Shown: in pieces, positions 38,742-57,986 of the stretch
Layout of the letters: each line of letters begins with the position of its first letter
How positions within the stretch are numbered: position 1 is the first letter of the stretch
Source: a plasmid
Direction: 5' to 3' (one strand)
Sequence record: NZ_CP081675.1
Length of the DNA stretch: 64,000 nucleotides
Translations under genes and position numbers: made by a program
The notes under the pieces: generated by a model
The model's input: the letters and a program-made list of their open reading frames with translations, nothing else
The model's database searches: none
Told to the model about the DNA's origin: nothing

Positions 38742-40130
38742 ATGTTTGATCCGTACGCCCAACCGTATAAGCGCCCGCCACGTACCGGGCCGTACTGCGG
38801 CTTCGTGGAGCGCGAGGACCCGCAGACGCGTCGCAAGTTTTATGTTCCGGCTGAAACTGACAGCCATATATGGGTACTCGGCAGGACGGGGGCCGGCAAG
38901 ACCACTTTGGTGTTGGCGCCGATGGCGATCGCACATCAGGGTCCTGCGTTCATCGTTTCCTCGAAAGACGATCTGCTTCAGTGGATACTGCCGTACCGGC
39001 CGGGCCCATCCAAGCTCATTGATCTGCGGACTGTCCGCAATCCGATGTATCCGAAGGATGTCGAGCCGGTGCGGTTCGATCCGACTACGTCCATACAAAG
39101 TGTTGATGATGCGTATACGACGGCCTCGACGCTGCTGCAGATGGCTTCTACTGCCTATGGCGCGGGCGCACAGCAGGTTACTGACGGAGGCACGTGGGAG
39201 TCGCTAGGTGAAGGCCCGCTGGCAGCGTTTTTGTATGCGGCCTCGCCGGCACAAACGAATCTGGGGATGCGATGGGTTCTGCAGGCAATTCAGAAACCCA
39301 TCTTGTTCGAGGATGACCCCCAAGATACGCCGTCATGGGCAATGGCGGCCGAGCTCGTCAATGTTCCCGAGTTGAAGGCTGAGGTCGATCACGCCGCTGA
39401 TATGGATCCCAGACAACGCGATTCCATCTTGTTCTCGTTGTCGAAAGCCACTCGTGCATGGTTGCGGATGGCGTTGCGTGAGCAGCCGGAGGGTGCGTTC
39501 ACTCCGGAGTTTCTCGATGACCCGACCGCCACGGTGTACGTGATGGCGCCGGGCAACGGTACAACCGCCCCCGCAGCGGTGACGTTGATTGAGCAGCTTG
39601 TGGAGCGGTGGCGGGAGAAGACCTCCCAGTGGGAGGATCTGAGCCGCCTGCTGGGTGTGATCGATGAGGCACCGAATACCGCCCCGATGCCCCGGCAGGC
39701 CAATTACGTCGGTGAGGCAAGGGGTTTGGGCGCCAACTTGGTGATTGCGCAGCAGGCAAGCAATCAGACCGATATCACCCACGGCCCCATTTACACGGAA
39801 GTGCTGCGCAAGATTTTTCCGGCGGTGTGTGTGATGCACGGAGCAGCCGAGCAGGAGCTGCTGCGGGCGGCCGCCGAAGAGCGTGGGGTGCAGCATCGTC
39901 GCGGTGAAGCTCAGAGTGTCGAGGGCGGCCGCAACCAGTCGGGGCGCCTGGAGCAGGAAGTCGAATGGCAGGAGTTGATGTCACGCAACCCTGACAAGGC
40001 ACGGCTGCTGCTGCGAGGCACGGTGGGCCAAGAGGTCTATCTGCCGCACGTGACAGAGTTCGTGGCGAAATTCTGGCCCAAGATGGCCCAGAATCGAAAT
40101 GTACCGGTCAGACCGGCGGCAGTAGGCTGA
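38742..40130 (+). CDS. type IV coupling-protein-like ATPase (VirD4/TraG/TcpA type, no N-terminal TM)
   Basis: Walker A VLGRTGAGKTT and Walker B VIDEAPN; 462 aa. Confidence 0.55.
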   Translation: MFDPYAQPYKRPPRTGPYCGFVEREDPQTRRKFYVPAETDSHIWVLGRTGAGKTTLVLAPMAIAHQGPAFIVSSKDDLLQWILPYRPGPSKLIDLRTVRNPMYPKDVEPVRFDPTTSIQSVDDAYTTASTLLQMASTAYGAGAQQVTDGGTWESLGEGPLAAFLYAASPAQTNLGMRWVLQAIQKPILFEDDPQDTPSWAMAAELVNVPELKAEVDHAADMDPRQRDSILFSLSKATRAWLRMALREQPEGAFTPEFLDDPTATVYVMAPGNGTTAPAAVTLIEQLVERWREKTSQWEDLSRLLGVIDEAPNTAPMPRQANYVGEARGLGANLVIAQQASNQTDITHGPIYTEVLRKIFPAVCVMHGAAEQELLRAAAEERGVQHRRGEAQSVEGGRNQSGRLEQEVEWQELMSRNPDKARLLLRGTVGQEVYLPHVTEFVAKFWPKMAQNRNVPVRPAAVG

Positions 40131-40134
40131 CCCC

Positions 40135-41667
40135 ATGTTGCGGGTCGACACCGATGCTCTGGTGGCCGTCGCGCGGTCACTGGAAAAGACGGCAGTAGGG
40201 CTGCTCGCCGACGGTGGGGCAGTACATCCGCCGCTGGCTGCCGATGCGGCCTCGGTGACCGCAGCGACGCGCTTCACTCATCGTGCCATGGCGTTGTCGA
40301 GTGATATCCGCAATGGTGCGCGGGGGCTGCTGTCGTCCGCGGCGACATTGCGGGCCATCGCGGGCAACTACGAGGAGACCGACGAGGAGATCGCGCGCGC
40401 ACACGCAGTGCTGCAGATGCCGCGTACCGGGGCAGGGCAGGTTCCGCACGTGGAACCAATACCGGCGCGCGAAAACCGGGCGCAGGTACCGATGCCTGCC
40501 CCGGTTCCGCGGCCCGGTGAGGTGGTGGCGGCGACGTTCCATACCGGAGATGCCTCGCGTGGTGCGGGGTTCATCTCGCAGATGCAGGCCACCGCCGATC
40601 ACGCGGAATTGGCCTCGGCCGAAACGCGTTCAGCCGTGCGGGTGTTGGACTCAGCATGGAAATCTCCTGTCTCGGCCGCACCGGCGATCGAGCATCTGTC
40701 GAATCAGTCCCGGTTTTTGGGGTTGGTGGCTTCAGATCACCGTGAGACGGCTGCCTCGGCATCCCAGCACGCCCAGAACTTCGATGCGCACAAGAGTCGC
40801 GCTGATTCCCCGCAGGATTTCGAACGGCTGCGGGCACAGATAGCGCAGGTAGAGGCCGCGAACAACACCCCTCCCAATGTCGGACGTTACAGCGGACTAC
40901 TGAAATCGCTCAACGATCAGCTCACTGAGATGGAGCAACGCAACCAAAAGAACGGGGCCGAGTATCACGAGGGCGCCGACGACGGGTCGCAGGCTGATCC
41001 GCCCTCGGATGAGGCTATGGACATGGGGCAGGCGGCAGGTTTAGCGGCCGCACTCCCGGGGATGATGGCCTCGCTCGCTGCCGGCATTGTCGGGGCGGTC
41101 GGCGGCCTGGCCGCCAAGGTGCCTGAAGCGGCGGGACAAGCCGCCACACAGGCAGTTTCGGGTATTGGGTCGGCGATGGGTGCCGCCCAAAAGGGTTCGG
41201 GGCGTTTGAAGATGCCGTCCTGGGATGAGCCCGGGGTCGGCGGTCTGGGTGGTGGTGAGGGTTCTGGTGGCGGTACCGCGCCTGCCGGCGGGCTGTCCCC
41301 GGCGCCGGGCGTGCAGACCCCGCCGGCGGGCGGCCTGGACACGTCCCGCGCCGCGGTTGCCCCGCATCCGTTGCCCGCGGCGGCGCCGGCACCTGCCGGC
41401 AGCGGGGGGATGGGGATGGCACCCATGGGGGGCATGGGCCCGATGGGTGCAGGTGGCGGCGCGGGGGAGAAGGACAAGGGCGGCAAAGAGCACAAAATTT
41501 TGGTGCGGGCGCCGCGCAACTCCGAGCCGGTCAAGGGAGTGCTGCAGCCAACAGGGCAGGACCGCCAGCAATCTGAGGCCAATGAACCTGCAGGGGAGAA
41601 TGGTCAGCCAGAAGGCACGCGGCGGATCGTGCTCGGCAGCCGTAAGGCAAAACCCGCTGACCAGTGA
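40135..41667 (+). CDS. PE-like N-terminal domain protein with YxxxD motif and Gly/Ala/Pro-rich C-terminus (putative ESX substrate, Esp-like)
   Basis: Helix-turn-helix Ala-rich N-terminal ~95 aa ending in NYEETDEE (Y-x3-D); long GGxGG low-complexity tail. Confidence 0.45.
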   Translation: MLRVDTDALVAVARSLEKTAVGLLADGGAVHPPLAADAASVTAATRFTHRAMALSSDIRNGARGLLSSAATLRAIAGNYEETDEEIARAHAVLQMPRTGAGQVPHVEPIPARENRAQVPMPAPVPRPGEVVAATFHTGDASRGAGFISQMQATADHAELASAETRSAVRVLDSAWKSPVSAAPAIEHLSNQSRFLGLVASDHRETAASASQHAQNFDAHKSRADSPQDFERLRAQIAQVEAANNTPPNVGRYSGLLKSLNDQLTEMEQRNQKNGAEYHEGADDGSQADPPSDEAMDMGQAAGLAAALPGMMASLAAGIVGAVGGLAAKVPEAAGQAATQAVSGIGSAMGAAQKGSGRLKMPSWDEPGVGGLGGGEGSGGGTAPAGGLSPAPGVQTPPAGGLDTSRAAVAPHPLPAAAPAPAGSGGMGMAPMGGMGPMGAGGGAGEKDKGGKEHKILVRAPRNSEPVKGVLQPTGQDRQQSEANEPAGENGQPEGTRRIVLGSRKAKPADQ

Positions 41668-41688
41668 CAACGGTCAATCTCGGGGGGA

Positions 41689-42090
41689 TTGTACACAGGG
41701 GCAAAGCCCTTTGTAGACAACCAGCGGGGGCCGTGTTTGGATCATTTTGTGGAGATTCCGGATCTACCTTCCTCCGAGGCGCTACGTCGACTGCCACCGG
41801 AACAGCGAGTGATGGCGACCCAGGCAAAGCTGCAGCGGGTGCAGGAAGTGTTCAAGAGCAAGCGTCAGGAACTCGACTCGTTAACCTCTGATGCCGGCAC
41901 CAGTGACGGTCTGGTGCACCTGGAAATCCACGGTGACGGTCAGTGGAAGCGGTTCACCTTGCATCCGGCGGTGGCCGCCCGTCTGACCAACATCGAGCTT
42001 GAAGAGATCATGAACGAAATCTTCACCGTGGTCAACGAGGACGCACGCAGTCAGTGGGCACAATGCCTGTCTTTCGACAGGCCGGCCTAG
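41689..42090 (+). CDS. hypothetical protein
   Basis: 133 aa ORF. Confidence 0.3.
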   Translation: MYTGAKPFVDNQRGPCLDHFVEIPDLPSSEALRRLPPEQRVMATQAKLQRVQEVFKSKRQELDSLTSDAGTSDGLVHLEIHGDGQWKRFTLHPAVAARLTNIELEEIMNEIFTVVNEDARSQWAQCLSFDRPA

Positions 42091-42097
42091 CGTAAAA

Positions 42098-42604
42098 ATG
42101 GGGGGACTTATGACTGACACAGACCGAAGTGGTCCGGCTGAACGCTGTGTTGAGTACCTCTGTGTCAACAATGCTGGCGACGCGCTGATCCTTGTCACCA
42201 CCGATGGCAACTACAGGAACTTCCGGCTGTACGTGGGAAGCCTAGGGGCTGAGATGCGTGAGGTCACAGTGTTCGATGCGGAGCGGATGCGTGACGGGGG
42301 AACGACCTGGATCTTCACTGCCGAAGGTACTTTCTTCGCGCCGTCCCCGCTCCGCCCGCCGGAGTGGGGACTAGGCTCAGACGGCTCTTGTGTTTGGCCA
42401 ACGGCAGACTTAGTGGGGGACACATGGGGATTGCCAACCGCCGATACGTTCCGGCCGCCCTTGCCGTTACCCAGCCCCGAGTCCTTCAAACTGGTTGACC
42501 GCGCGGTGTATGTCGATGTGGGATCCGCCACCGACGATCGAATCCTCATTGAACGCGCACAGACGGCTCTCGCGGCCGGTCACAGTAGGAGAGACAACGC
42601 ATGA
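42098..42604 (+). CDS. hypothetical protein
   Basis: 168 aa; ATGA overlap with next gene. Confidence 0.35.
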   Translation: MGGLMTDTDRSGPAERCVEYLCVNNAGDALILVTTDGNYRNFRLYVGSLGAEMREVTVFDAERMRDGGTTWIFTAEGTFFAPSPLRPPEWGLGSDGSCVWPTADLVGDTWGLPTADTFRPPLPLPSPESFKLVDRAVYVDVGSATDDRILIERAQTALAAGHSRRDNA

Positions 42605-42981
42605 CGCACGCCGCCCCCACCGGTATCGAAGCGGCCCTCAGGCTCGTTCCGCCCCTGTGGGGTGTGCACGGTTGGTCGCTCGCTCGCAGCGAGCAGAACG
42701 GCGATGTGACATGGGCGTTGGCCGTGATCGCGCAGGGCACTGTGTCCTCACCGGAGCATCTGCTTCTGTTTTACCGCGGCGCCTACATTGGGACCGCCAC
42801 CGCGGATCCGCGCCCGTACACGCGTGTTCTCGACGTCACCGGTGATGTGGTGACGGTGGAGTATCGATGGCCTCTGGGCGAGGAGCCGTTGGCGGCACCG
42901 GCTGGTGTGGGCACCGTCCGTTACGAGGTCAGCGCCCAGGGGGTACGGCCGTTGGACGCACCGCCGTGGCCGCAGCCATGA
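42601..42981 (+). CDS. hypothetical protein
   Basis: 126 aa; translationally coupled to upstream ORF. Confidence 0.35.
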   Translation: MTHAAPTGIEAALRLVPPLWGVHGWSLARSEQNGDVTWALAVIAQGTVSSPEHLLLFYRGAYIGTATADPRPYTRVLDVTGDVVTVEYRWPLGEEPLAAPAGVGTVRYEVSAQGVRPLDAPPWPQP

Positions 42982-43229
42982 GCCGCAAGTACGGCGCGTT
43001 CACCGCTGAGTGCGGCGACGACGTTGGGCGGCCTCGCGGTATTCGCGGAGATCTACGCGAAACTCGTGGGCGAGGAAGACCAGCAACCGGACTAGTACGG
43101 CAACCGCGGCGATCATTGCCAGCAGCCACATCGTGGCGATGAGGACGTCGGTGTCAGACAGCTCGGCGAGGCGGCTCATAAGGGCTAGGGTACTTGGCTT
43201 CAACGTTGTCCGGCCGATGCGCCATCAAG

Positions 43230-43805
43230 TCAGATTCGCGGTGTGTGATCCCGCGCTTCCATGATTTGGAACGTTTCGATCTCGGCTTCGGGCCGCTTCA
43301 ACGGTAGCCAGTCTTGGCTTTCGGGTATGGCTAGCCAGCCTTCGAGGATGCCGTAGCCGGCGGCGATGAGTAGGGCTGCGGGGATTTGCCAGATCAGCCA
43401 CGGCACCACCAGGACGCCGAGCACGCTCATGGGCGGGTCGTAGAACATCGGCAGCGCGATGCCGGTGAGTGCTGCGAGTCCGAACAGCATGGCTAGCGGG
43501 TAGGCGTAGAGGCGCTGTGGGATAAGGGACACAAGGTAATTGGATAGAACCCGGGCGATGGCCCAGCCGACCGGCGCTACGGCTGCGAGCACTAGCACTG
43601 CTGCACCTTCGGCGTAGTCGGCGGGGGTGTTCCATTGGCGCTGCCAGATGGTGGGGGTGATTTCGTCTTCGTGCTGATCGGGGGACGGTGTGAACTCGTT
43701 GCGGCGGCGGCGCCGCAGCGACCGGCCGAGTAGTTCGGCGCGGCGGTGCTGCATGAGGAAGGGCCCTTGGTTGTGCATGATCCATTCACGCCGTAGGTCA
43801 TCGAC
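43230..43805 (-). CDS. hypothetical membrane protein (start set at internal Met; upstream ORF part looks non-coding)
   Basis: C-terminal 190 aa has 4 TM helices; N-terminal 110 aa of the long ORF is Arg/Pro-rich junk and overlaps 43826..44314. Confidence 0.3.
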   Translation of the reverse strand, partial: VDDLRREWIMHNQGPFLMQHRRAELLGRSLRRRRRNEFTPSPDQHEDEITPTIWQRQWNTPADYAEGAAVLVLAAVAPVGWAIARVLSNYLVSLIPQRLYAYPLAMLFGLAALTGIALPMFYDPPMSVLGVLVVPWLIWQIPAALLIAAGYGILEGWLAIPESQDWLPLKRPEAEIETFQIMEARDHTPRI

Positions 43806-43825
43806 GTGTTGGGTACAGGTGCGCA

Positions 43826-44314
43826 TCAGGGAATCCAATCGTGAGAATGCTGCAGTGTGTGGTGCAGCTGGGTCATGAGGCGCTGGGAGTTTGTCAAGTA
43901 GTCGTGTGCGGCTTGGAGGCTCTCGCGCATCTGGTTGGTGGTGTGTGCGGCTGGGTATTGGTCCACGGCGGCATAGGTTTTGGTGATCGCCTCGCTGATG
44001 TGGTCGGCGTCTTGGCGGATTTGGTTGTTGAGTTGGGTTGCCTGGCATAGCAAGGTGTGCAGGGGCCCTGGGAAGTCCAGCGGTACGGGCACGGTGCCGT
44101 CGCGGGCTGCACGCATTGTCGAGCCGGGTGGCCATTGGAGTGCGTTGTCGATGCGTAGGGCCATGCGCTGTGTGAGCGTTCGTTGGCCTGCGAAGACTTT
44201 CGCCATGTGTGAGCGTGATGGCCCGCCTAGGGCGGCTAGATCACCGCGCCGGCAACCCATCGCCATCAGTCGACGGCCGATGTACTGATCCAGACGGGCG
44301 TCGACAGTGAGCAC
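43826..44314 (-). CDS. XRE-like HTH protein
   Basis: N-terminal HTH-like LAALGGPSRSHMAKVFAGQRTLTQRMALRIDNAL. Confidence 0.3.
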   Translation of the reverse strand: MLTVDARLDQYIGRRLMAMGCRRGDLAALGGPSRSHMAKVFAGQRTLTQRMALRIDNALQWPPGSTMRAARDGTVPVPLDFPGPLHTLLCQATQLNNQIRQDADHISEAITKTYAAVDQYPAAHTTNQMRESLQAAHDYLTNSQRLMTQLHHTLQHSHDWIP

Positions 44315-44379
44315 AATTCGAGCCTATCGCCGCTTTGGCGCAGTTCAACTTCACCTGAACCGGGCTTACGATCCGAACT

Positions 44380-44778
44380 ATGTGGAAGGTTCTGTTGTCG
44401 ATCTTCATCTTTGGGGCCATCGCAGGGCCGTTGATCGCGTTGGTTTTGGGTGCGGTGACGGTGCTGATTGTCATGGTCGTGTCTGTGGTGGGGGCGGTGT
44501 GTGCGCTGATGTGGGCCGGCACCAAGGGGGTATGGCGCTGGGCTGGGGCTCAGCCCATATCCGCGACAGACTCAGCGCGACGTGATGTACCGGCCGAAGA
44601 CGTGCCGCTGGTGGGTCCGCGTTACCGCGGCGCGGAGCTCGCCGACATGCCAGGCCCTGATGCATCGGGGAAGGACGCGGATGAGTCGATTTTCGAGCAG
44701 TACCGGCGCCGGCATCCGGGCGGCGGTGTGGGTCGCGCCCTGGTGCTCGATACCCGCGCCTACCCGAAGACGCCATGA
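44380..44778 (+). CDS. small membrane protein
   Basis: 132 aa, two TM helices; overlaps next gene by 4 nt. Confidence 0.35.
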   Translation: MWKVLLSIFIFGAIAGPLIALVLGAVTVLIVMVVSVVGAVCALMWAGTKGVWRWAGAQPISATDSARRDVPAEDVPLVGPRYRGAELADMPGPDASGKDADESIFEQYRRRHPGGGVGRALVLDTRAYPKTP

Positions 44779-45806
44779 GCGAGACCGATGCACAGTTCTT
44801 GCGGCGCATCTACCCGGAGGCCGCCGCCGGGGATAGCCGCGACGACGACATTGTGATCCTTGACGAGGACCAGCTCGAGGCGAGTGCTGACGAGAACGTG
44901 CCGACAGCAGATGACGACGATGACCAGGATTTCGGGGACCGGTTTTCCACTGTAGCCATCGAGCAATCCGAGATCGAGAAACCTGCGGGCAGGCAGCAGG
45001 ATTCAGATGAGGACAGCACGGTCAATGGGCGTACCAAGACCACCTTGGCGGTGTTGGGCGGTGTCGGTGTGTTTGTGGCCGTGGTGATCATCGTGATGGT
45101 CAATGTGTTGAGCAAAGATACTGCGGCTGTGGCCGCACCCGAACCTCAGCGCAGGGTCAACGTCGCCGGTTCTGTGACGACACCGCCGGTTTCGGCGACT
45201 GAGTCCGCCAGCACGGACCGGTCCATGCCTTTCGAGGCTTCCGCCGACTGCGGGGAAGGCTCGACGACAGCACGCAACGTCGAAGATCCCACCGGCGACA
45301 GCGCGTGGGTGTGTTACGGGCCGGGGCTGGGACTGGGGCAGCCGATCGATTTGAAGTTCTCCGATGACATCACCGCGGTGGCGATCAAGCTGGCGCCGGG
45401 CTGGCTGGCCAAACGCCCGGGCGGCAAGGAGGAGTGGGGCCAGCACCGCATCATCACCAAGATCCGGTGGTGGTTCATGAACGATGTCAAGGGCCGCTAT
45501 GTCGACCAGGACACCAAGAACGTGAAAGGCATTGCGACGGTGCCGGTGGAGAACATCCGCACTCGCTGGATTCGGGGAATCGTGGTGCAGACTTCCCGGC
45601 CGCCCACAGATCAGGTGCCGCAGAACTCGGCACCCTCGGGTGGCGGAATTTTCGGGGGCTTGTTCGGCCCGGACGGGTCGAGTTCACCGGGTAGCCCAGG
45701 TACCGGGGATGCACCTAACGCTTCCTCGGATCCGGGCTTGCGCGATGCGATCGATCAGTCGTTCGCGACCAGCCGGATCGAGGTGATAGGCCATGTTCCG
45801 AACTGA
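44775..45806 (+). CDS. acidic N-terminus / single TM / extracytoplasmic domain protein (conjugation-associated?)
   Basis: 343 aa; Asp-rich N-term, TM LAVLGGVGVFVAVVIIVMVNVL. Confidence 0.4.
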   Translation: MSETDAQFLRRIYPEAAAGDSRDDDIVILDEDQLEASADENVPTADDDDDQDFGDRFSTVAIEQSEIEKPAGRQQDSDEDSTVNGRTKTTLAVLGGVGVFVAVVIIVMVNVLSKDTAAVAAPEPQRRVNVAGSVTTPPVSATESASTDRSMPFEASADCGEGSTTARNVEDPTGDSAWVCYGPGLGLGQPIDLKFSDDITAVAIKLAPGWLAKRPGGKEEWGQHRIITKIRWWFMNDVKGRYVDQDTKNVKGIATVPVENIRTRWIRGIVVQTSRPPTDQVPQNSAPSGGGIFGGLFGPDGSSSPGSPGTGDAPNASSDPGLRDAIDQSFATSRIEVIGHVPN

Positions 45807-45853
45807 GAATGTGGTGTGTAGAGATTTGCCGGACGGCATGAGGGAATAGTGGC

Positions 45854-46810
45854 ATGACGCGGACCTGGAAGAACCGTTTCAAACTGTTCGGTAAAGTTGT
45901 TGGGATTCTGCTGGCCATTTATTTGAGCTTTTGCACGATAGTTGCTGGCACGTCCACTACATGGAGCTGGATACGTCCGCCTGAGGGTCCGAATGTGCGG
46001 GGTATCTCTCAGACGACATCGAACGAGAGCGCGGTGGCCACCGCCTGGGCGATCGAGTGCTTTGCGCTGTTTAAAATCGCCACTACCGCGGAGCGGGACT
46101 TGCTCAAAGATTGCTTTCCTTTGCCTGACGATTACGCGCTGCCGGAGACCCCGAAGATCTTCATCACGACGCCGCTGGCGTTGACGACGCTGGAAGACAA
46201 GCGCCAGTCCACCAGTACCGCGCAGCTGTACACCGTGTTCTTGACGACGCTGGAGCGCCCGTACGCGGGGGCTGCTGCTAAGCGTGCCTATTACGCCGTG
46301 CCGGTCAGCGTGGTGGATCACGGTCCGGCTGGTGTCAGCCTTCCAGAGCGTCTCGGGGGGCCGCCGGCTGGGGTCAGGTTGGCAACGCTCTACAGCTACG
46401 CAGTGACAACCCCTGATGTGAAGACGGGCAAGGGCGGAGCCCCGCTGGCCACCGATCTGGCGGGATTCTTCACGGTGTTCCTCACAACCAGCGATGCAGG
46501 GCAGCTGGCCCATTACGTCACCGGGACCGCCCAGATTGGGCCTCTGGGGGCCTATCAAACGGCGTTCTTGACCAAACTCGAAGCTACTCAACCGATTCCG
46601 GACAACCCCGTTGAGGGTACCGAACGGCAGGTGCTGGCTCAGGTGACAGTGCAAACCGAACAAGTGTTGGACTGGCCCATGACCTACCCGTTGACAGTCA
46701 CTTTCACCAAGGGCGCTTGGGCCGTGTCGCGCTTGGACTACATGCCGCTGGTCGACGTAAGCGCAGACGCCATCGAATCCGCGGCATCCTCACCGACCTC
46801 TACCCGATAG
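45854..46810 (+). CDS. VirB8/TcpC-like protein with N-terminal TM and duplicated domain
   Basis: TM helix then two repeats containing YTVFLTT / FTVFLTT; architecture like tandem NTF2-like domains of Gram-positive VirB8 homologues. Confidence 0.4.
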   Translation: MTRTWKNRFKLFGKVVGILLAIYLSFCTIVAGTSTTWSWIRPPEGPNVRGISQTTSNESAVATAWAIECFALFKIATTAERDLLKDCFPLPDDYALPETPKIFITTPLALTTLEDKRQSTSTAQLYTVFLTTLERPYAGAAAKRAYYAVPVSVVDHGPAGVSLPERLGGPPAGVRLATLYSYAVTTPDVKTGKGGAPLATDLAGFFTVFLTTSDAGQLAHYVTGTAQIGPLGAYQTAFLTKLEATQPIPDNPVEGTERQVLAQVTVQTEQVLDWPMTYPLTVTFTKGAWAVSRLDYMPLVDVSADAIESAASSPTSTR

Positions 46811-46821
46811 GAGAATTCCTG

Positions 46822-47127
46822 ATGACTACCCAGATTCTTGCGGCGGTGAACCCGTTCTCGTTCATACAGAGCACGGCGGTGCAGGTCGTGATCACCGGCG
46901 TGTCGGTGGTTTTCGCTGTCGGTGCAGTGGTGACGGTGAAGAGCATGATGAGCAGGCATGGAGGTATTGGCGCCGCGGTGGCATCAGCACTCGGGGTGAT
47001 CTTGGTGGCGTGCATTGTGGGCGCGGGTTGGGGTGCTTACAGCCTGCTGGGCGGCTGGCTCAATAGCCAAGGTGTTCGGACGGTGCAAGTGGTTCCGCCC
47101 GGCGGCGGCACCCCGTACGGCAGCTAA
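46822..47127 (+). CDS. small two-TM membrane protein (pilin/VirB2-like position)
   Basis: 101 aa from ATG with GGAGA RBS; two hydrophobic helices. Confidence 0.35.
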   Translation: MTTQILAAVNPFSFIQSTAVQVVITGVSVVFAVGAVVTVKSMMSRHGGIGAAVASALGVILVACIVGAGWGAYSLLGGWLNSQGVRTVQVVPPGGGTPYGS

Positions 47128-47139
47128 GGACTTCTCGTT

Positions 47140-47493
47140 ATGGCGCAAGAGGATTCAGCGCAGCTGTTCAGCTCGTTTCGGGATGTCCCGATATCGATCT
47201 CGGAGTCGGACTCGTTCAAGATCCCTCTGGGGCCATGGGGCCCAGTGGATCTGGTCATCGGTGTCCTAGGTTTTGCCTGGACTGTGTTCTGGGTGATCAT
47301 CAACCTCGATAACGATCCCCTGACTAAGGGCATTTTCAGTGTCATGATCTCGGCGGGCGCGGTGGCGGCGGCACGGCAGATCAAGAAGGGCCGGCCGCCT
47401 CTGCTCACGCGGTTCGTGTGGATGGTGCGCCGCTGGTTCCCTCAAATCGTCGACACGGGCGACGGAATCTACAAGAAACCGTTACGAAAGTAG
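47140..47493 (+). CDS. small membrane protein immediately upstream of VirB4-like gene (VirB3-like position)
   Basis: 117 aa, one or two TM helices. Confidence 0.35.
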   Translation: MAQEDSAQLFSSFRDVPISISESDSFKIPLGPWGPVDLVIGVLGFAWTVFWVIINLDNDPLTKGIFSVMISAGAVAAARQIKKGRPPLLTRFVWMVRRWFPQIVDTGDGIYKKPLRK

Positions 47494-47533
47494 CTCTGTA
47501 GCACTTCGGGCATACCGGGGTTAGCGTCTATTT

Positions 47534-50098
47534 GTGCAAATACAACCCCCGGAATTCGCAGAGAAAAACCTATCTGTCTGTGACGGTGGCGTCTACGCAA
47601 ACTATTTGCTATCCGGCATGCCATACATGTTCAAGCGCAAGGAACGTCGCCGCCGGTTCGCAGAGCTGCACCGCCAGCTCACACAGGCCTTGCCGTCGGG
47701 GACGTTGCTGTATCTGGTGGCCGCACCGACTGACATCGACTTCATCATGCGACGCGCCCTCTGGGGTCACCTGAGCCCGGCGCAGCTGCGGCGCGCGGTC
47801 GCGGGGGAGTTGCAGGATCCGTGGGTTCAACACGTGCAGGCCTATGAATCCACTTTCCGGGCCTACGCGCCGTATCAGCGTCTGTTCTGGATCGCGATGC
47901 CTGTGGATGCCGGGTTGGAAGGGTACGCCAAAGGCTCTGCAAAGCAACGTTTCCGGAACTGGTTGGCCGGCGCCGACAGTGAAGCCGCTACCACGCTGGA
48001 GGGCTGGCGGGAGACTGCAGACACGATGGTGCGGGGGCTGCCGCGTGACTTCAAACCCACACCGGTCACCGAAGCGCAGCAAGAGTGGTTCTGGGATCAG
48101 TTCTGCTCCCTTGGTGCGTTCAACGACCCGTTCCCGGCACCGACGGTGCCGGCGCGCGGTGTTTTCCGGCGCGCCAAGTTCCACCCCCGCGGCGGCCGGC
48201 GCGACGAATCGATCCTGAAAGTGACGCGCCCGGACAACCCCGAGATCAGGCCGAGCTATCAGAGTGTGTTGACGCTGTTCAGCGCCCAGAAACTGCGATT
48301 CCCTGGCTCGGAGATCTTCAAATTGATCGACCACATCGACCCCTCCCTGGGCCGGGTGAACTGCGCGATGCGGCTGAGCTTGAACCACGTGCAGGACGAG
48401 AAGAATCACAACACCAGTACCGCCAAGAACATTCGAGACCAGGTCCGCCAGCGCGGTATCGCAGCGCTCAATGACGACGAACTCAAGCACCAGATGCAGG
48501 ATCTGCGCGAGTACAACAATCTGCTCAGCGCCGAACCTGGGCAGAAGGGCATGAACGTCGATGTCGTGTTCGCTGCCGGGGCGGACTCGTTGAGCAAAGC
48601 GCGCCACCTGGAACAGGCGTTGCTCAACATCATGGATCGCTCGCGAGTTACGTTGAAATCATTCCCCGGGTCACAGGCCGGGTTGATCAAGATTTTCGCT
48701 GTCGGCAACGAAAAGCAGGCCGGACTCGACGGTATGGGCCATCCGACGACACCGACGAAGTTCTCTCGGTTCGTGCCGCTGATCTCCACCGGCTTGGGCA
48801 ACTCCACAGGCATACCGCTGCTGGTGAACTATTCGACGTTGCGCCGCGAGATCGTGCTCTTGGACCTGCAGGGGGCCTCGGGGCGCGGACATGTGGGCGT
48901 GATCTTGATCGGTGGATCACCTGGTGGCGGTAAGTCGCACTGCTCGAAGATGATTGTGATCGGACTGATGAAGCGCCGCTCACGGATTCACGTCGTGGAC
49001 CCCACTGATACTCGTGAATGGGAGAAGGCGATCGGGCGGGAGCCTGGGGTCAAGGTGATTGATGTGGCCGGCGGCAAGGTCTCCATGGACTTGCTGCGCC
49101 TACTGAGCCCCGACGTCGGCGGGGAGGTGTTCGTCGACCATCTCATGCCATTGTTGGGATATCCGGCAGAAAGCAGCGAGGGTGATCGCTTGGAGCTGCT
49201 GCTGGAACCCGCCTCGCGCGACACTAACGGCATCGGCAGCTGGAACCGGCTGGTGGAAGTGTTGAGGCGAGAGGCCAGCACTGACGCCGACCGGGAAATG
49301 CTCAACAAGTTCGAGGTGCTGTCCAACCGCTCGTATATGCGGGCGCTCACCGATGAGTTGTTGGAAGCCCCTGATATCAGCAAGCTTTCAGGACTGGTGT
49401 GGAACATGGCCGGCATTCCGCTGCCCACCAGCACCGAGAACGACACCGAGCATTTAGCGAGCCGGATATCGCGGCGCGAGCGGGCGGGGCAGGCTATCTA
49501 TGGCATCTGCGCCGAACTGTCGCAGCAGTTGTTCTTCAACGATTCGCAGAGCAGCGATTTCATCGTGCTTGAGGAGGCCGAGGGCTATTTGAACTCCCCG
49601 GCCGGCGGCAAGCGGGCTCACAAGATCACTCGCGAGGCCCGGCGCCTGCAAACTGGCCTTGTCGTGATCAGCCAGAACCTGATCAACGACTGCAGGAAGA
49701 TGGGGACCGAGTTCGTGACCCAAACGATCCTGACCCGCTTCGATGAAGATGATGTCGCCAAGGCTCATCTGGAGCGGTTCATGGGGATCACCGAGGCCGA
49801 GTATCCCGACGTGGTGCGTCGCTACATTGACGATACTTCACCGCCGGAGCTCAATGACACCCTCGAAATGTCGATGGCTACTGATGATTTCGATATGGCC
49901 ATGTCAGATTTCGGCAAGACGATATCTGGGCGTGAGGGTGAGTGCTTTTTCCGCGACGAGTTCCGTCGGGTCGGGCGCGGCAAGCTGCTGGGCGCACCGA
50001 CTGCTGAGTTGGCAGACAGACTCAACACCAACCCAAACGAACAAAAGAGCGGCGACGGGGACGGTAAGCCGAGCAATGGTCAGCGGGGTGCGGCGTGA
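47534..50098 (+). CDS. VirB4/TraC/TcpF-like conjugation ATPase
   Basis: 854 aa; Walker A GGSPGGGKS, Walker B FIVLEEAEGY in C-terminal half. Confidence 0.75.
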   Translation: MQIQPPEFAEKNLSVCDGGVYANYLLSGMPYMFKRKERRRRFAELHRQLTQALPSGTLLYLVAAPTDIDFIMRRALWGHLSPAQLRRAVAGELQDPWVQHVQAYESTFRAYAPYQRLFWIAMPVDAGLEGYAKGSAKQRFRNWLAGADSEAATTLEGWRETADTMVRGLPRDFKPTPVTEAQQEWFWDQFCSLGAFNDPFPAPTVPARGVFRRAKFHPRGGRRDESILKVTRPDNPEIRPSYQSVLTLFSAQKLRFPGSEIFKLIDHIDPSLGRVNCAMRLSLNHVQDEKNHNTSTAKNIRDQVRQRGIAALNDDELKHQMQDLREYNNLLSAEPGQKGMNVDVVFAAGADSLSKARHLEQALLNIMDRSRVTLKSFPGSQAGLIKIFAVGNEKQAGLDGMGHPTTPTKFSRFVPLISTGLGNSTGIPLLVNYSTLRREIVLLDLQGASGRGHVGVILIGGSPGGGKSHCSKMIVIGLMKRRSRIHVVDPTDTREWEKAIGREPGVKVIDVAGGKVSMDLLRLLSPDVGGEVFVDHLMPLLGYPAESSEGDRLELLLEPASRDTNGIGSWNRLVEVLRREASTDADREMLNKFEVLSNRSYMRALTDELLEAPDISKLSGLVWNMAGIPLPTSTENDTEHLASRISRRERAGQAIYGICAELSQQLFFNDSQSSDFIVLEEAEGYLNSPAGGKRAHKITREARRLQTGLVVISQNLINDCRKMGTEFVTQTILTRFDEDDVAKAHLERFMGITEAEYPDVVRRYIDDTSPPELNDTLEMSMATDDFDMAMSDFGKTISGREGECFFRDEFRRVGRGKLLGAPTAELADRLNTNPNEQKSGDGDGKPSNGQRGAA

Positions 50099-52032
50099 TC
50101 GCGGCGTGGTGGTACACCCGCTCGCCGCGGCTGCGCTGGACCATCCGGATCTATACGGTGTGCTATCTAGTGTGCGCGTGGATGATGAAGTCGCAGGCCG
50201 CGATTGCTCGCGCCGATGACACTACCGAGGCGGTATCGCGCTCAGGGAACATGATGGGCTGGACCGGGCTGCACAGCCTGCGCGGAATCCCGTCGGCGTC
50301 GATGCATCTGATCACGTTGTCGGATCGGCGCGGAAATGGGTTCTTCGACGTCATTCTAGCGATCGTGCAGGTCTTCAAAGACATTGTCACCTTTACCTTT
50401 CCGGCGGGCCTGCTGACCGGTGCGGTGGCCTGCTTTCTGCTATTTATGTCCCTGATCCTGTGGCTGTTTAAGTTCGCGCAGTCGATGGTGTGGCTGCAGT
50501 GGCTCGCGGCGCTGTTCGCGCCCCTGTTCACGGCGCTGGTGCAGGTGGTGGTGCAGCTGGGCATCTTGCCGGCATGCTTGGTTGTCGGGCTGACAACCGG
50601 TGGTGTGGTGTTCATGCTGGGTGAACGCGGGCGCGGCATGGCGATGATGGCGGCCGCGTTCGGGGTCGGATTGTTAAGCCTGGCGTTCTTCTCTGATCCT
50701 GTGGGCGATCTGTACTCGCCCGACACGGGGCTACTGGCGACCATTCGGCATTTGGGATTTCAGGTGGGTGAGGCCGCTGCGCGCAATGGGGCGTTGCCGG
50801 GCGCCACCGGTGCCGCCCAGCTCGACAATGCGATGGCCCGCATGGTGACCTCCCTGCAGGAGGGGCCGCTCATGCAGGTCAACTTCGGCCACGTCCTGGG
50901 GTCGCAGTGCGACGGGGCCTACAAGGAGGCATTGGCCACCGCTGATAGCTCTGCGGCGCTGGATAAGATCAGGGGATGCGATAGCGACGCGGCCGATTAC
51001 GCTGAACACCTCGCGTGGGAGGCGTTGGCGGCTGTCGGGATCTTCGGGCTGCTGGCGGCCGTGATGGGCCTGTTCATCATCTACGTGGTGGTCGCTGAGG
51101 TCGAAGTGGGTTTCAAGGCAGGTGCCTACGCCATCAGTGTTGTACCGATGAGCGGTCCGGGGGCGATTCCAGGTCCGACACAACGTGTGTGGATTCAGTT
51201 GATCAAGAACTTGGGCATGGCCGGGTTGGAATGGTTCGCCTACACCGTGTTCGCCTCATTCATTGCGGTGCTGATGATCTCGGCCACGGGAGAGGAGTTC
51301 GCAGCACGCACGGGCATCAACCATCCGGTGGTGAAGTTTCTGGTGGCGACGATCTTGTCGGCGGCGGCGATCGTCGCGTTCTGGAAAATCACGGGATCGT
51401 TTCGCACCATGTCGTTTCGCAAAGTGTCCAAGGCCATGTCGGGCCCGGCGACAGCGGCGCAAGCGGCCATGCTGGGTACCTTCGCCAAAGGACAATCGGC
51501 CGGCGAATGGGCGCATAACTGGCTTAATTCGCGCGGCGAGGGCGAATCAGACAGCGCCGACGACGAGGATAGCGATGGGCAGGGTAAGAACAGCCCCCGA
51601 GATCCCGACGTGCCGACCCTTCCCGACAACATTCCCGAAACGGTGGTGCCCACTACCGCCTCAGCCCCGGACAGCCGAGAAGTGCAGGGCTCTACCACCT
51701 CACGCACTCAAGCGGCGGCCGACGCGGCAGTGGCCACGGCGGCCCCGGAGGCCGCGGTGGCCCAGCGTGTCGCCGAACGCGTCCGTGGCCGTGGCCACGG
51801 CGAAAACGAGGACCCCAGCGCCGGCGGTGGGGGTGCGGGCGTCACACACGCAGCCCAGCGGTACCTGACCGATGATCACCAACCCGACCATGATGGGGCT
51901 CCGCGCCGCGGGGACGTGGACAGCACGCCGGCCGTGCCGGGTCTGCCCGACGTGGCGGCCGACACGGCCAATCGCGAACCGAGCAACGACGGACCCGGAC
52001 CCACCGTTCAGACAACACCGGAAGGCGAATAA
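50095..52032 (+). CDS. VirB6/TrbL/TcpH-like polytopic membrane protein with acidic C-terminal tail
   Basis: 645 aa; ~8 TM helices; ATGA overlap with VirB4-like gene. Confidence 0.5.
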   Translation: MIAAWWYTRSPRLRWTIRIYTVCYLVCAWMMKSQAAIARADDTTEAVSRSGNMMGWTGLHSLRGIPSASMHLITLSDRRGNGFFDVILAIVQVFKDIVTFTFPAGLLTGAVACFLLFMSLILWLFKFAQSMVWLQWLAALFAPLFTALVQVVVQLGILPACLVVGLTTGGVVFMLGERGRGMAMMAAAFGVGLLSLAFFSDPVGDLYSPDTGLLATIRHLGFQVGEAAARNGALPGATGAAQLDNAMARMVTSLQEGPLMQVNFGHVLGSQCDGAYKEALATADSSAALDKIRGCDSDAADYAEHLAWEALAAVGIFGLLAAVMGLFIIYVVVAEVEVGFKAGAYAISVVPMSGPGAIPGPTQRVWIQLIKNLGMAGLEWFAYTVFASFIAVLMISATGEEFAARTGINHPVVKFLVATILSAAAIVAFWKITGSFRTMSFRKVSKAMSGPATAAQAAMLGTFAKGQSAGEWAHNWLNSRGEGESDSADDEDSDGQGKNSPRDPDVPTLPDNIPETVVPTTASAPDSREVQGSTTSRTQAAADAAVATAAPEAAVAQRVAERVRGRGHGENEDPSAGGGGAGVTHAAQRYLTDDHQPDHDGAPRRGDVDSTPAVPGLPDVAADTANREPSNDGPGPTVQTTPEGE

Positions 52033-52165
52033 CAATGAAACCTTGGTATTGGTCCCTTGGCGCTGCCGTAGGGGTGCTGGTGTGGGAGGTTGGGGTGTAT
52101 TTCTCCGGCATTGTGAGTCTGGCGTTCTCAGCGGCTACTACGTTCAACCCGGGAGGCTGAAATCT

Positions 52166-53995
52166 ATGCCGACAACAGCAAGCAGCAAGTTCGCCGAAGG
52201 CCTGCGGCACCTGGGGTTGCTGCCGGGCGTGGCAACCAGCAGGACTGATGCCGCCACGGCGGCGGGGTGCTTTCGTGAGGCCACCCGTCTTGACTCGACG
52301 ATGTGTGATGCCTGGTTGGGTTTGGCCTATGCCCAAGGTTCCACCGTCCAAGTCCTGGCCGCGGCGCACACTCATGCCCGCAACATGTATCGGGAAGTGC
52401 GCAGCCTGGAAGTGCCCGACAGCCATCTGGCGCCCATTGTGCGTACACCGATCGGCGGCAATTTCACCATCACCAGCAAGACGGCCCTGGCGGCCGGGTA
52501 TGCCGGGTTGCTGGTCAGTGACCGCCGCTTCGATGACGCCGAGAATTTGCTGATTGAACTCAACCAACCCGAGAACACCTACGTGACGTTGATATCGACG
52601 ATCCTGTACGCGGTTACCGAACGTTGGACCGATGTGCTCACCACGGCAGACCAGGGCCGACGCCCCGCCGATGTGACGATGGCGGCCACCGTGGATGCGC
52701 TCACCGCACAGGCGGCCGCGAAAATGGGACAGTTCGGGCGGGCGGTGGAGCTCGCCGAATTTGCATACCTGCACGGCGAGCCAGCGACGAAAGGGTCTGC
52801 GGCGCTGACCGCGGGCCTGGCGCTACGCAGCCTGAGCCAGTCCGAGAAGGCCACTGAATGGCTGACCAAGGCAGCGGCCACCGGAACCAGCCCGGAAGCC
52901 AAAGCAGCACTGGATAACTCTGGCTATGTTCTGACCGTCATCACTGAAGATGTCATCAACGCGCGCACCAACCGGTGGGATCCCAGCAGTGCACCATCGC
53001 TGGAGGAGCTCGAGCGCGAGATGCGCCGCATCGGCGACCCGGAGCTGTTGGCTGAGGGGGAAGCCGAGCTTGCCGCCCATGTGGGTCTGGTCGTGGTTAA
53101 GGATCGGATAGAACAGCTCAAGACTGCCCAGAAGTTTGACTTGGAGATGCGGGCGGCTGGTGAGCCGGTCGGTGAAATCGAAAGTCTCTGCATGACTTTC
53201 GTTGGTGAACCGGGCACGGCGAAGACCTCAGTAGCGAAGGCTACCGGCAAGATTTTCTGCGGATTGGGGTTGCTGCGATTCCCCGATGTGTATCGGGTAA
53301 CGCGCATGAACCTCGTGGGCGAGGCGATCGGTCAAACAGCGCAGCGCACCAGCGAGTGGCTGGAGCGGGCACGTGGAGCCACGCTCGTGGTCGACGAGGC
53401 TCACGAGTTGTGGAAACCGCAGACCACGAATGATTTCGGTGTGGAAGCTCTCGATACCATCATGAATTTCGCTGAAGAGCACCGCCGCGACATCATGATC
53501 ATCCTGGCCGGATACAAGCTTCGCATCGACGCCATGCTCGATGCGAACCCAGGTCTGCGAAGCCGGTTCCCTGTGCAGCTGGAATTCCCGTCGTACTCGG
53601 CCGAGGAGATGCTCTCGATCAGCGACGTGATCGCCCGGCTGAGTTCTAAAGCGATTCTCGATCCCAGCGCACGTGGATACCTGGCCGCGATTTTCACCGA
53701 ACTGACCAGCAAATACGAAGATTACAATCCTTACGGCGGGGAGCCGCGTCTACTGGTTGACCGCGCCGCCAACGGGCGCTTCGTTCGCATGCTGCTGACG
53801 GAGGCTTCCATCTGGATGAAGAACCGGGCGATGAGCGACTCACTGATCGACCGGAGCACACCGGATGGGCGCCGCCTAGCTCGCACATTGTGCGAGGCAG
53901 ACCTGCGCCGCGCGGCGCCGCTGGTGTTGAAGGCGCAAAAGTGCGATCCGCAGATCGCCGATGTGAACGCCGATAGCGCTTTGATCGCGCTGTGA
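52166..53995 (+). CDS. eccA: ESX conserved component EccA (TPR-like N-domain + CbxX-type AAA+ ATPase)
   Basis: Walker A GEPGTAKTS, Walker B LVVDEAHEL, arginine finger region; N-terminal TPR-like helical repeats. Confidence 0.8.
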   Translation: MPTTASSKFAEGLRHLGLLPGVATSRTDAATAAGCFREATRLDSTMCDAWLGLAYAQGSTVQVLAAAHTHARNMYREVRSLEVPDSHLAPIVRTPIGGNFTITSKTALAAGYAGLLVSDRRFDDAENLLIELNQPENTYVTLISTILYAVTERWTDVLTTADQGRRPADVTMAATVDALTAQAAAKMGQFGRAVELAEFAYLHGEPATKGSAALTAGLALRSLSQSEKATEWLTKAAATGTSPEAKAALDNSGYVLTVITEDVINARTNRWDPSSAPSLEELEREMRRIGDPELLAEGEAELAAHVGLVVVKDRIEQLKTAQKFDLEMRAAGEPVGEIESLCMTFVGEPGTAKTSVAKATGKIFCGLGLLRFPDVYRVTRMNLVGEAIGQTAQRTSEWLERARGATLVVDEAHELWKPQTTNDFGVEALDTIMNFAEEHRRDIMIILAGYKLRIDAMLDANPGLRSRFPVQLEFPSYSAEEMLSISDVIARLSSKAILDPSARGYLAAIFTELTSKYEDYNPYGGEPRLLVDRAANGRFVRMLLTEASIWMKNRAMSDSLIDRSTPDGRRLARTLCEADLRRAAPLVLKAQKCDPQIADVNADSALIAL

Positions 53996-56051: not shown

Positions 56052-56849
56052 GTGCGGGTGACGTCCTTTGACGTTGGCGTCTGCGCGGCGACAGGTCTGA
56101 ACATCGTTGCCAGCGCCGGCCAGAGCATCTACCGGGTCGCCAGCACAGACTACGGACCGGTCAATCCTCCGGCGCGAGAGCTCGGCGGCGTCCCGGTCGA
56201 GGGCTGGTCGCGGTGGGACACGCTGGGGCGCACCATCTATGGGTGCTCGACGGCCACCGGCGCGTTCGTCGAAGTGCTCGAGTACATCACGCCCGATCCC
56301 CCGGCCACGCCGATGGAGGAGTTGTTCGACGACGTCGGCCCCGACGATGCCGCGACGTTCGCCGAGCAGGTCGCCCGGGAACTGCCCGCCCACGGGGCCA
56401 TGGCCTACCGGTCGATCCCGCGGGGATGGAGGGAAGAGCGATCGCTCTATGAATTGCGGCTGCCCGGCAGTGGGTGGTTTGTGAACATCACCGGAGCCCA
56501 ATCATTGTCGGTCGTCTCCAAGCAGCTCAGCTCGCTGGTGGCGCAGTGCGGGATCGATCAGCTCACGGTCAGCGAGTTGACGAGCTCTTCTGAGGAATAC
56601 AAGAAGTTGACCACGGGGATCGCCACGTGGGTTCGGGAGTCGGTGGTGCTCGCCAACGGCGATAGACCGCACGGGATCGTGTACCCATCGAAATGGGGTA
56701 TCACGCTGGACAATTGGGCGATGTGGCTGCGACGCGCCGACGATCAGACCGGAGTCGATCCGATTGCCGTCACCGCCACCGATGGGATTGGCCGGCACAC
56801 GAGACCATTTGTTGAGGCGGCGACGTTGCGTCATATGCGGATCTTCTAG
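56052..56849 (+). CDS. RES-domain toxin (MbcT-like NAD-targeting family)
   Basis: Arg...Glu...Ser signature segments GRTIYGCSTATGAFVEVLEY and HGIVYPSKWG; downstream of Xre-type antitoxin. Confidence 0.5.
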   Translation: MRVTSFDVGVCAATGLNIVASAGQSIYRVASTDYGPVNPPARELGGVPVEGWSRWDTLGRTIYGCSTATGAFVEVLEYITPDPPATPMEELFDDVGPDDAATFAEQVARELPAHGAMAYRSIPRGWREERSLYELRLPGSGWFVNITGAQSLSVVSKQLSSLVAQCGIDQLTVSELTSSSEEYKKLTTGIATWVRESVVLANGDRPHGIVYPSKWGITLDNWAMWLRRADDQTGVDPIAVTATDGIGRHTRPFVEAATLRHMRIF

Positions 56850-57030
56850 CGGGTGGGCAAGACATTGCCGCCATGCCTCAATCGAACAGGAGACCTGGCG
56901 GCATCACCCAAACGCCCGCGCAGAACACCGTCACCACGGCAAGAGGACGTGAATTCTGATCGATTCAGCCCCCACCCGTCGTTCGCCATACCCTTTCGAC
57001 TGATCCGCCCCGGCATGTCGGGAGGTTCTC

Positions 57031-57984: not shown

Positions 57985-57986
57985 GA

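Follow-up and report, generated by a model that had tools for sequence, protein, structure and literature searches.

Transfer of the plasmid pRAW needs both its type IV secretion system (T4SS)-like locus and its ESX (type VII secretion) locus, and its components in the outer envelope have yet to be identified (PMC4173767). Plasmids like pRAW depend on a minimal T4SS (VirB4, VirD4 and TcpC) together with the type VII system, and it is not known by what means DNA, or the contact between mating cells, passes the periplasm and the mycomembrane. The remaining genes of the T4SS locus were unassignable or hypothetical in the 2014 pRAW paper and in a 2025 T4SS review (PMC4173767, PMC12857230), and a layout in which the T4SS genes are nested between eccE and eccA has been published (PMC7478629). 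In the ESX-1 system of M. tuberculosis, mycP1-eccE1-espB-espL form one transcript, with EspL carrying a YbaB-type domain (PMC6319747), and YbaB-like ESX-1 proteins have been proposed to act as substrate chaperones (PMC6107294). Cleavage of EspB (the secretion-associated protein B of ESX-1, Rv3881c) by MycP1 at A358 takes off the hydrophilic end, leaving the hydrophobic tail, and M. smegmatis EspB did not oligomerise under the conditions in which its slow-grower counterparts are driven to do so (PMC8313811). Here we describe an EspB-like gene in a 64,000-nucleotide (nt) stretch of the plasmid sequence record NZ_CP081675.1, referred to below as the window. The gene lies directly behind a gene for a VirD4-like coupling ATPase and is followed by a small YbaB-like gene; profile comparisons and a structural model indicate an EspB-type product, with PE-like and PPE-like domains fused in one chain.

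Fold and domain layout of the EspB-like protein

Close full-length homologues of the 510-residue product, at 81-86 % identity, are found in Mycobacteroides chelonae, M. abscessus and Mycobacterium sp. D16R24, and one metagenome homologue, again full-length, shares 49 % identity. Plasmids of many mycobacteria carry further homologues at 27-31 % identity. The full-length homologues align end to end with a common start. From a 19-sequence alignment of homologues, which also served as the AlphaFold input alignment, we built a family profile; a search with it returned 817 cluster representatives at E <= 1e-3, 129 of them at E <= 1e-30, most being 500-600 residues long and matched by the profile from end to end. 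Because full-length homologues exist at 49-86 % identity, together with 817 family representatives, this open reading frame (ORF) is a real gene and not a chance ORF of GC-rich DNA.

When the family profile was compared with the PDB, the best matches were to EspB of M. smegmatis (4wj1, E = 2.6e-5) and of M. tuberculosis (4xwp, E = 1.5e-4), and matches to PE25 (E = 1.3e-3, positions 2-91) and PPE41 (E = 0.015, positions 125-280) were also obtained. A member-by-member Pfam scan of the 19 sequences found PPE in 10 (best E = 1e-9), PE weakly in 7 (best E = 2.4e-4) and EspB_PPE in 3 (best E = 2.3e-6). We then aligned the family by hhalign to an EspB alignment built from an EspB fragment that had been obtained through the PDB profile match. 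This comparison gave a probability of 95.9 % (E = 5.5e-9) over 225 columns spanning window-protein residues 2-237, and it paired Y79, D83, W175 and S177 with EspB Y81, D85, W176 and G178, respectively. AlphaFold modelled residues 1-290 with high confidence, and in a Foldseek search of the PDB with this model the top ten matches were all EspB (E = 4.7e-7 to 5.6e-5; template-modelling scores 0.61-0.74, target-normalised), with PPE4, PPE41 and PPE15 ranking below. Because the profile, hhalign, AlphaFold and Foldseek results agree on EspB, we assign the predicted protein to the single-chain PE-PPE fusions of the EspB type. An earlier reading made from the sequence alone (the sequence-only reading) had described a PE-like domain protein; the PE-like hairpin is indeed predicted, but that reading overlooked a PPE-like domain of ~160 residues, which makes the protein a PE-PPE fusion. 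The family seems to stand midway between canonical EspB and those PE and PPE proteins that are separate chains.

The N-terminal ~95 residues had been taken for an Ala-rich helical hairpin. This agrees with both their composition (22 Ala in residues 1-95) and the model, in which the two hairpin helices (Table 1) are of high confidence. In the family alignment the hairpin holds the invariant residues P33, A35, D37 and S40, a pattern that we take to recall the 'AADxxS' motif of PE proteins. The octapeptide NYEETDEE, given by the sequence-only reading as the end of the hairpin, begins at residue 78, and the YxxxD motif that it contains sits in the last turn of helix 2. In the model Y79 is thus part of the hairpin, where it closes helix 2, and by alignment it takes the place of EspB Y81. 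Neither of the outcomes named beforehand as refuting the sequence-only reading, the lack of a predicted PE/Esp-like fold or a Tyr lying outside the helix-turn-helix, was obtained, and the interpretation as an ESX substrate is supported to that extent. The protein has three Tyr residues (79, 252 and 277), of which Y79 alone is followed by D or E at +4. All six close homologues keep Y79 and have D or E at position 83.

A Pro-rich linker joins the hairpin to the PPE-like domain. Its mean predicted local distance difference test score (pLDDT) is 35-42 in three blocks over residues 81-110 and 62 in the block 111-120, the segment below 50 being 81-113; confidence climbs only at the C-terminal end, where P127-G128-E129 opens the PPE-like domain. 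Nine of the 32 residues from 96 to 127 are Pro. At the helix-turn-helix tip of the PPE-like domain, W175 and S177 are invariant in the close subfamily, and this motif is degenerate in distant members. By alignment, Y79xxxD83 and W175-x-S177 appear to correspond to both parts of the EspB secretion signal.

The sequence-only reading had a long Gly/Pro/Ala tail follow the hairpin. A low-complexity tail does exist, namely residues 291-510, which are Gly/Ala/Pro-rich with pLDDT < 50, but it does not come directly after the hairpin, from which it is separated by the linker (81-127) and the PPE-like domain (128-285). Three parts of the tail can be told apart (Table 1). In the hydrophobic Ala/Gly-rich segment, G298, G302, P308, G317, G320, G324, P330 and Q339 are conserved columns, and Kyte-Doolittle maxima over 19 residues reach 1.6-1.75 at residues 301-311. 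The Gly/Pro/Met-rich part contains 30 Gly, 15 Ala and 14 Pro of 95 residues, with conserved columns around M428, P430, M431 and G432. The last 65 residues contain 13 K/R and 9 D/E, and E464, V466 and G468 are conserved family-wide. We also considered a transmembrane-anchored protein and rejected it, as the sole hydrophobic stretch is Ala/Gly-rich, marginal in hydrophobicity and located in the low-confidence region.

The VirD4-like neighbour and the YbaB-like partner

That the gene starts 4 nt past the VirD4-like stop is confirmed by the sequence: the TGA stop at 40128-40130 is followed by CCCC and by the ATG at 40135. The upstream protein shares 43-46 % identity with proteins from 61 mycobacterial plasmids that RefSeq annotates as 'type IV secretory system conjugative DNA transfer family protein'. 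It has no predicted transmembrane segment and no 19-residue window reaching a hydrophobicity of 1.6 or more, and phmmer against the PDB gave only spurious matches to TAL-effector repeats. A small 'VirD4' gene of pMK12478 was considered as a detached membrane anchor and rejected; its product is not hydrophobic and matches the middle of the window VirD4-like protein (38 % identity).

The arrangement of VirD4, a 4-nt gap, the EspB-like gene and the YbaB gene recurs in four contexts, which are the window (100 %), M. chelonae (86 %), Mycobacterium sp. D16R24 (81 %) and a metagenomic locus (49 %), the percentages being identities of the EspB-like protein. The gene calls of the three relatives have the same 4-nt spacing, and the junction sequence itself (Table 1) is conserved in D16R24 and in the metagenome. 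The genes upstream of this triad vary, with EccE in the metagenomic locus, small genes in M. chelonae and D16R24, and an IS200/IS605 insertion sequence (IS) element in the window. A scan of 37800-47600 for promoters and terminators gave no more candidates than chance would, and none of them lay on the + strand between the VirD4-like, EspB-like and YbaB-like genes; because the conserved junction measures only 4 nt, there is no room for a promoter or terminator there. The 4-nt gap by itself argues for co-transcription of the VirD4-like and EspB-like genes, and translational coupling of the two is probable. A second EspB-like copy in the window was sought by tblastn and, none being found, rejected. 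Megablast of 38742-42090 against PLSDB plasmids returned no match. A search of genome contigs for related loci with a second alignment was swamped by the low-complexity pattern GGMGMAPM and yielded one distant locus.

The small gene downstream matches Pfam YbaB_DNA_bd and DUF2710 (Table 1). Its true start is probably the GTG at 41749, which gives 113 residues as in the homologues. A YbaB_DNA_bd match is found in 6 of 9 orthologues (best E = 3.4e-8), and the M. branderi orthologue is annotated YbaB/EbfC; the YbaB-like protein of the window has no match in the PDB. As MycP and EccE are encoded upstream of the pair, the gene order of the window is that of mycP-eccE-espB-espL in ESX-1, except that VirD4 stands in front of espB; the IS605 element and one unknown ORF also lie in between. 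In the metagenomic locus EccD, MycP, EccE, VirD4, the EspB-like gene and YbaB are contiguous.

Proposed role and the alternatives

We regard as established the fold class, the position of the YxxxD motif, the pairing with a YbaB-type gene, the co-location with a full ESX system and a minimal T4SS, and the conserved operon junction. It is very likely that the protein is an EspB-type ESX substrate, and we hold it to be likely, with somewhat less assurance, that it is a substrate of the ESX system on the same element and works by the following mechanism. The EspB-like/YbaB pair would have been relocated from the head module of the ESX locus, the gene group preceding eccB in the window (Table 1), to a place behind VirD4, where the EspB-like gene would share a transcript with VirD4 and its translation would probably be coupled to that of VirD4. 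EccC of the plasmid would recognise the protein through the YxxxD signal and ESX would export it, whereupon the plasmid mycosin would trim its tail, as MycP1 does for EspB. Outside the cytoplasmic membrane the protein would plausibly act as an oligomeric channel-like, envelope or surface component needed by the T4SS-like/ESX conjugation machine. Export, processing by MycP and a role in conjugation are what we infer by analogy with EspB; a direct structural role in conjugation is the tentative part of the proposal, with the balance tilting somewhat against it.

Several points weigh against this reading. The assignment to the EspB kind rests on profiles and predicted structure, the identity to EspB being ~15-19 %. 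Taken alone, the window protein reached no Pfam or NCBIfam threshold and had no phmmer match in the PDB; its sub-threshold hits were Pfam FUSC and NCBIfam WXG100 only. The curated Pfam models EspB_PE (PF18625) and EspB_PPE (PF21856) did not match it at E <= 1, nor did Pfam PE or PPE match. In BLASTP against the EspB fragment the YxxxD region alone was aligned (E = 0.1), and the C-terminal tail alone found nothing meaningful in the PDB. The protein has WxS where EspB has WxG, and in distant family members the Tyr of YxxxD/E is often Phe and in two cases Met. A literature search found no experimental data on secretion, processing, oligomerisation or conjugation for any family member.

The distribution of the gene adds further points to this list. 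Five other ESX plasmids (M. avium pP4-4a, M. abscessus pGD21-1, M. poriferae pJCM12603, pCBMA213_2 and M. branderi pJCM12687) carry a weaker homologue (27-31 %) in the ESX head module, away from VirD4. There the module, which lies upstream of eccB or eccC, comprises genes for a DUF4226 protein, a type VII secretion target, a small DUF2694-type or hypothetical protein, the EspB-like protein and YbaB. An NlpC/P60 (C40) peptidase gene lies upstream of the module in four of the five plasmids (not in pGD21-1), and one or two extra small genes are interposed in two of the five loci. In pMchErm55 and pMK12478 a small hypothetical gene follows VirD4. Because the five plasmids place the homologue in the head module and these two have a small gene after VirD4, the linkage of the EspB-like gene to VirD4 is lineage-specific, and a specific functional tie to VirD4 is not general. 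The sequence-only reading of a gene embedded in the T4SS operon therefore holds for the window lineage, with its four contexts and identical 4-nt junction, and not for the other plasmids examined. In the window, the head module ends after the DUF2694-like ORF and runs straight into EccB, and the EspB-like/YbaB pair is absent there. The most economical account is that in one lineage the pair was transferred out of the head module to a site behind VirD4, where it has stayed.

The same distribution bears on the view that the protein is an ordinary ESX substrate or accessory of the PE/PPE kind, one that serves ESX secretion itself, for example by regulating or priming it as proposed for EspB and MycP1, so that its adjacency to VirD4 is neutral and it has no direct part in DNA transfer. 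The head-module position in the five plasmids, far from VirD4, and the unrelated small gene after VirD4 in pMchErm55 and pMK12478 both favour this view, as do the richness of the region in IS elements and duplications and the known nesting of T4SS genes between eccE and eccA (PMC7478629). However, the unit of VirD4, 4-nt gap, EspB-like gene and YbaB stays intact while its upstream neighbours change, and even at 49 % identity the unit is still present, its junction sequence conserved. Moreover, conjugation of pRAW needs ESX as a whole, so a role confined to ESX would still matter for transfer (PMC4173767). We judge this alternative unlikely; were it correct, the assignment would still be a useful annotation and hold no surprise.

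A bolder version of the proposed role would make the EspB-like protein the missing physical link or outer conduit of the T4SS/T7SS (type VII secretion system) conjugation machine, either as an EspB-style ring, assembled once ESX had exported the protein and mycosin had trimmed it, that carries DNA or a mating bridge across the periplasm and the mycomembrane, or by docking the relaxosome onto EccC together with the anchor-less VirD4. We consider this decidedly improbable. If true, EspB of ESX-1 would have its origin in a part of a plasmid conjugation apparatus.

Less probable still is a cytoplasmic adaptor that is produced along with the anchor-less VirD4-like ATPase, binds it and uses its own YxxxD motif to dock the relaxase-DNA-VirD4 complex onto EccC, thereby coupling the T4SS to the type VII channel. 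The VirD4-like protein does lack a hydrophobic segment, the translational junction between both genes is tight and conserved, and pRAW transfer requires both systems, for which a joint mating-pair complex has been hypothesised (PMC4173767). Yet the five other plasmids encode the weaker homologue away from VirD4, and the long disordered tail and the neighbouring mycosin are a better fit to an exported, processed EspB-like protein; we give the adaptor very little credence. A non-functional chance ORF, to which a G+C content of ~65 %, long overlapping ORFs on the opposite strand and the low-complexity C-terminal half might point, is refuted by the end-to-end homologues with their common start, the 817 family representatives and the 290-residue fold predicted with confidence.

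Dual T4SS/ESX plasmids are already known, as are PE/PPE labels on close relatives of the window protein, which databases list as 'PE domain-containing protein', 'PPE protein' or 'hypothetical'; the EspB-like assignment corrects these labels. A literature search found no paper that describes plasmid-borne EspB homologues or assigns the EspB-like gene. With a large family, conserved over its full length and paired with an EspL-like gene, plasmid conjugation in mycobacteria gains a candidate for its missing envelope component, one that a knock-out could test. Recognition of the family also places the EspB/EspL pair, known from the virulence system ESX-1, in conjugative ESX systems and bears on the proposed plasmid origin of ESX-1.

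The surrounding locus and its relation to known systems

Table 1. Features of the EspB-like gene, its product and the surrounding ESX and T4SS-like genes (window positions; position 1 is the first nucleotide of the window).
Feature	Position	Strand	Details and basis
ESX head module without EspB-like gene	15314..17533	+	DUF4226 protein 15314-16933; EspC-like type VII target 16950-17255; DUF2694-like ORF 17147-17533; EccB directly after
Plasmid-type ESX (type VII) locus	17559..36060	+	Pfam and NCBIfam
EccB	17559-19040	+	
EccC	19071-23219	+	IS3 insertion after it
PPE	26172-27368	+	
EspG	28297-29304	+	
ParA/MinD (EspI-like)	29378-31285	+	
EccD	31278-32837	+	
Mycosin	ORF 32444-34477	+	
EccE	34474-36060	+	
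VirD4-like coupling ATPase gene	38742..40130	+	462 aa; Pfam T4SS-DNA_transf 19.8 bits (cut-off 20.1), TraG-D_C 20 bits (cut-off 22)
VirD4-stop/EspB-like-start junction	40120..40141	+	GTAGGCTGA-nnnn-ATGTTGC; 4-nt gap 40131-40134; window sequence
EspB-like PE-PPE fusion protein gene (predicted)	40135..41667	+	510 aa plus stop; homologues, profile matches, AlphaFold, Foldseek, hhalign
PE-like helical hairpin, residues 1-80	40135..40374	+	Helices 6-24 and 38-80 (AlphaFold); PE25 profile match
Y79-E-E-T-D83, YxxxD/E type VII secretion motif	40369..40383	+	Sequence; aligned to EspB Y81...D85
Pro-rich PE-PPE linker, residues 81-127	40375..40515	+	AlphaFold pLDDT, composition
PPE-like helical domain, residues 128-285	40516..40989	+	Helices 128-137, 140-174, 181-222, 226-243, 253-284; pLDDT ~89-97 in most blocks
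W175-K-S177, helix-turn-helix tip	40657..40665	+	Counterpart of EspB/PPE WxG, Ser replacing Gly
Hydrophobic Ala/Gly-rich segment, ~residues 297-350	41023..41184	+	Only hydrophobic window of the protein (around 300-329)
Gly/Pro/Met-rich low-complexity tail, residues 356-445	41200..41469	+	Contains GGMGMAPMGGMG; disordered in AlphaFold model
Charged C-terminal region, residues 446-510	41470..41664	+	Motif NSEPVKG (residues 462-468, nt 41518-41538)
YbaB/EbfC-like (EspL-type) small protein gene	41689..42090	+	Pfam YbaB_DNA_bd E = 1.3e-4, DUF2710 E = 1.1e-3
Rest of T4SS-like block, then EccA	45854..53995	+	TcpC-like 45854-46810; VirB4-like 47534-50098; polytopic membrane ORF 50095-52032; EccA ORF 51872-53995

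The ESX locus of the window is complete and of the plasmid type. The head module, seen with its EspB-like and YbaB genes in the five other plasmids, looks equivalent to accessory gene sets of ESX-1, namely espE/F/H or espA/C/D plus espB/L, where the parallel to EspE/F/H is one that we presume. The mycosin ORF (677 aa) and the EccA ORF (707 aa) overlap the genes preceding them, and the corresponding M. chelonae products have 545 and 604 aa; the true starts of both probably lie further downstream.

After EccE the order is IS200/IS605, an unknown minus-strand ORF, VirD4-like, EspB-like, YbaB-like, several small or membrane proteins, TcpC-like, VirB4-like, a polytopic ORF and EccA, and the part from the rest of the T4SS block to EccA is found in the same order in M. 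chelonae and Mycobacterium sp. D16R24. Directly after the YbaB-like gene, 42098-42981 encodes a 168-aa ORF without matches and a 126-aa protein with an LppP/LprE lipoprotein domain (Pfam E = 5e-19), both absent at that position in the M. chelonae and D16R24 relatives. Directly upstream of TcpC lies a gene (44775-45806) for a 343-aa protein whose N-terminus is acidic; the protein has one transmembrane segment and weakly matches an NADase-type glycan-binding (discoidin-like) domain (NCBIfam E = 0.002), and it could serve the transfer apparatus at the cell surface or by binding the cell wall. The polytopic ORF overlaps the VirB4-like stop and encodes 645 aa, with hydrophobic segments numbering about nine and without a match in Pfam. 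M. chelonae has it in conserved form (644 aa), and it is present in D16R24, where it is cut at the locus end. We regard it as a candidate for the 'missing' VirB6-type channel subunit.

Mobile elements interrupt the region at several points. The IS200/IS605 element (36091-37810), between eccE and the VirD4 block, has an intact TnpA (Y1_Tnp, E = 4e-46) at 37382-37810; its TnpB is represented by two overlapping minus-strand ORFs, 36091-36669 and 36603-37358, and is probably frameshifted. Two IS3-family copies of 1364 bp, 100 % identical and in direct orientation, occupy 24391-25754 and 57001-58364, with rve/HTH_21 transposase ORFs at 24421-25374 and 57031-57984. The first splits the ESX locus between eccC and the pe/ppe genes, and the pair brackets ~31 kb (most of ESX, the T4SS-like genes and EccA) in the manner of a composite transposon. 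A 655-bp segment is duplicated with 100 % identity at 14481-15135, just upstream of the DUF4226 gene, and at 23736-24390, where it abuts the IS3 copy at 24391. The ORFs over this segment have no Pfam match, and the duplication could reflect an IS-mediated rearrangement or an assembly artefact. Beside the second IS3 copy, 56052-56849 gives a weak match to the RES domain (E = 9e-4); in M. abscessus pGD21-1 an XRE/RES toxin-antitoxin pair lies near the EspB-like gene.

Compared with the pRAW-like plasmids (Ummels et al. 2014), the window has the same gene set, with VirD4-, TcpC- and VirB4-like genes beside or nested in a plasmid ESX locus and EccA beyond them (PMC4173767, PMC7478629). The gene after VirD4 in the pRAW-like plasmid pMK12478 encodes an 88-aa hypothetical protein.

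The second set of relatives comprises PE/PPE heterodimers such as PE25-PPE41 and PE5-PPE4, which are exported with EspG. Their hairpin and five-helix PPE fold both match the predicted window protein, they carry YxxxD/E on the PE part as it does, and an EspG gene is present in the window locus. Unlike these heterodimers, the window protein fuses both domains in one polypeptide. Unlike members of the PE family (PF00934), its N-terminus, MLRVDTDALVAV, is without Pro-Glu near residues 8-9, and its PPE-like domain begins with P127-G128-E129 in place of the PPE motif of the PPE family (PF00823).

The closest described protein is EspB, likewise a single-chain PE-PPE fusion with a long linker. Both proteins have the YxxxD that ends PE helix 2 and the Trp of the WxG turn at homologous positions. 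Both have a tail of ~200 residues that is rich in Gly, Pro, Ala and Met and includes a GGMGMxPMG stretch and a Lys-rich part, so that the layout of the window tail resembles that of EspB, a likeness that is qualitative only. The genetic setting is shared as well, with a YbaB-type neighbour, espL in the case of espB, and with mycP-eccE upstream. The differences are that the family-invariant P33, A35, D37 and S40 line up with a different EspB sequence in the hhalign comparison, and that the window family has a conserved hydrophobic Ala/Gly segment and the C-terminal motif NSEPVKG. EspB is further marked by assembly into a heptameric ring or channel and by an EspK-type chaperone; no EspK-like gene was recognised in the window. 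Finally, EspB belongs to the chromosomal ESX-1, whereas the window gene belongs to an ESX of a conjugative plasmid or of the type found on integrative and conjugative elements, and lies directly behind VirD4. Taken together, these comparisons suggest that the window protein is a divergent member of the EspB kind in a new setting.

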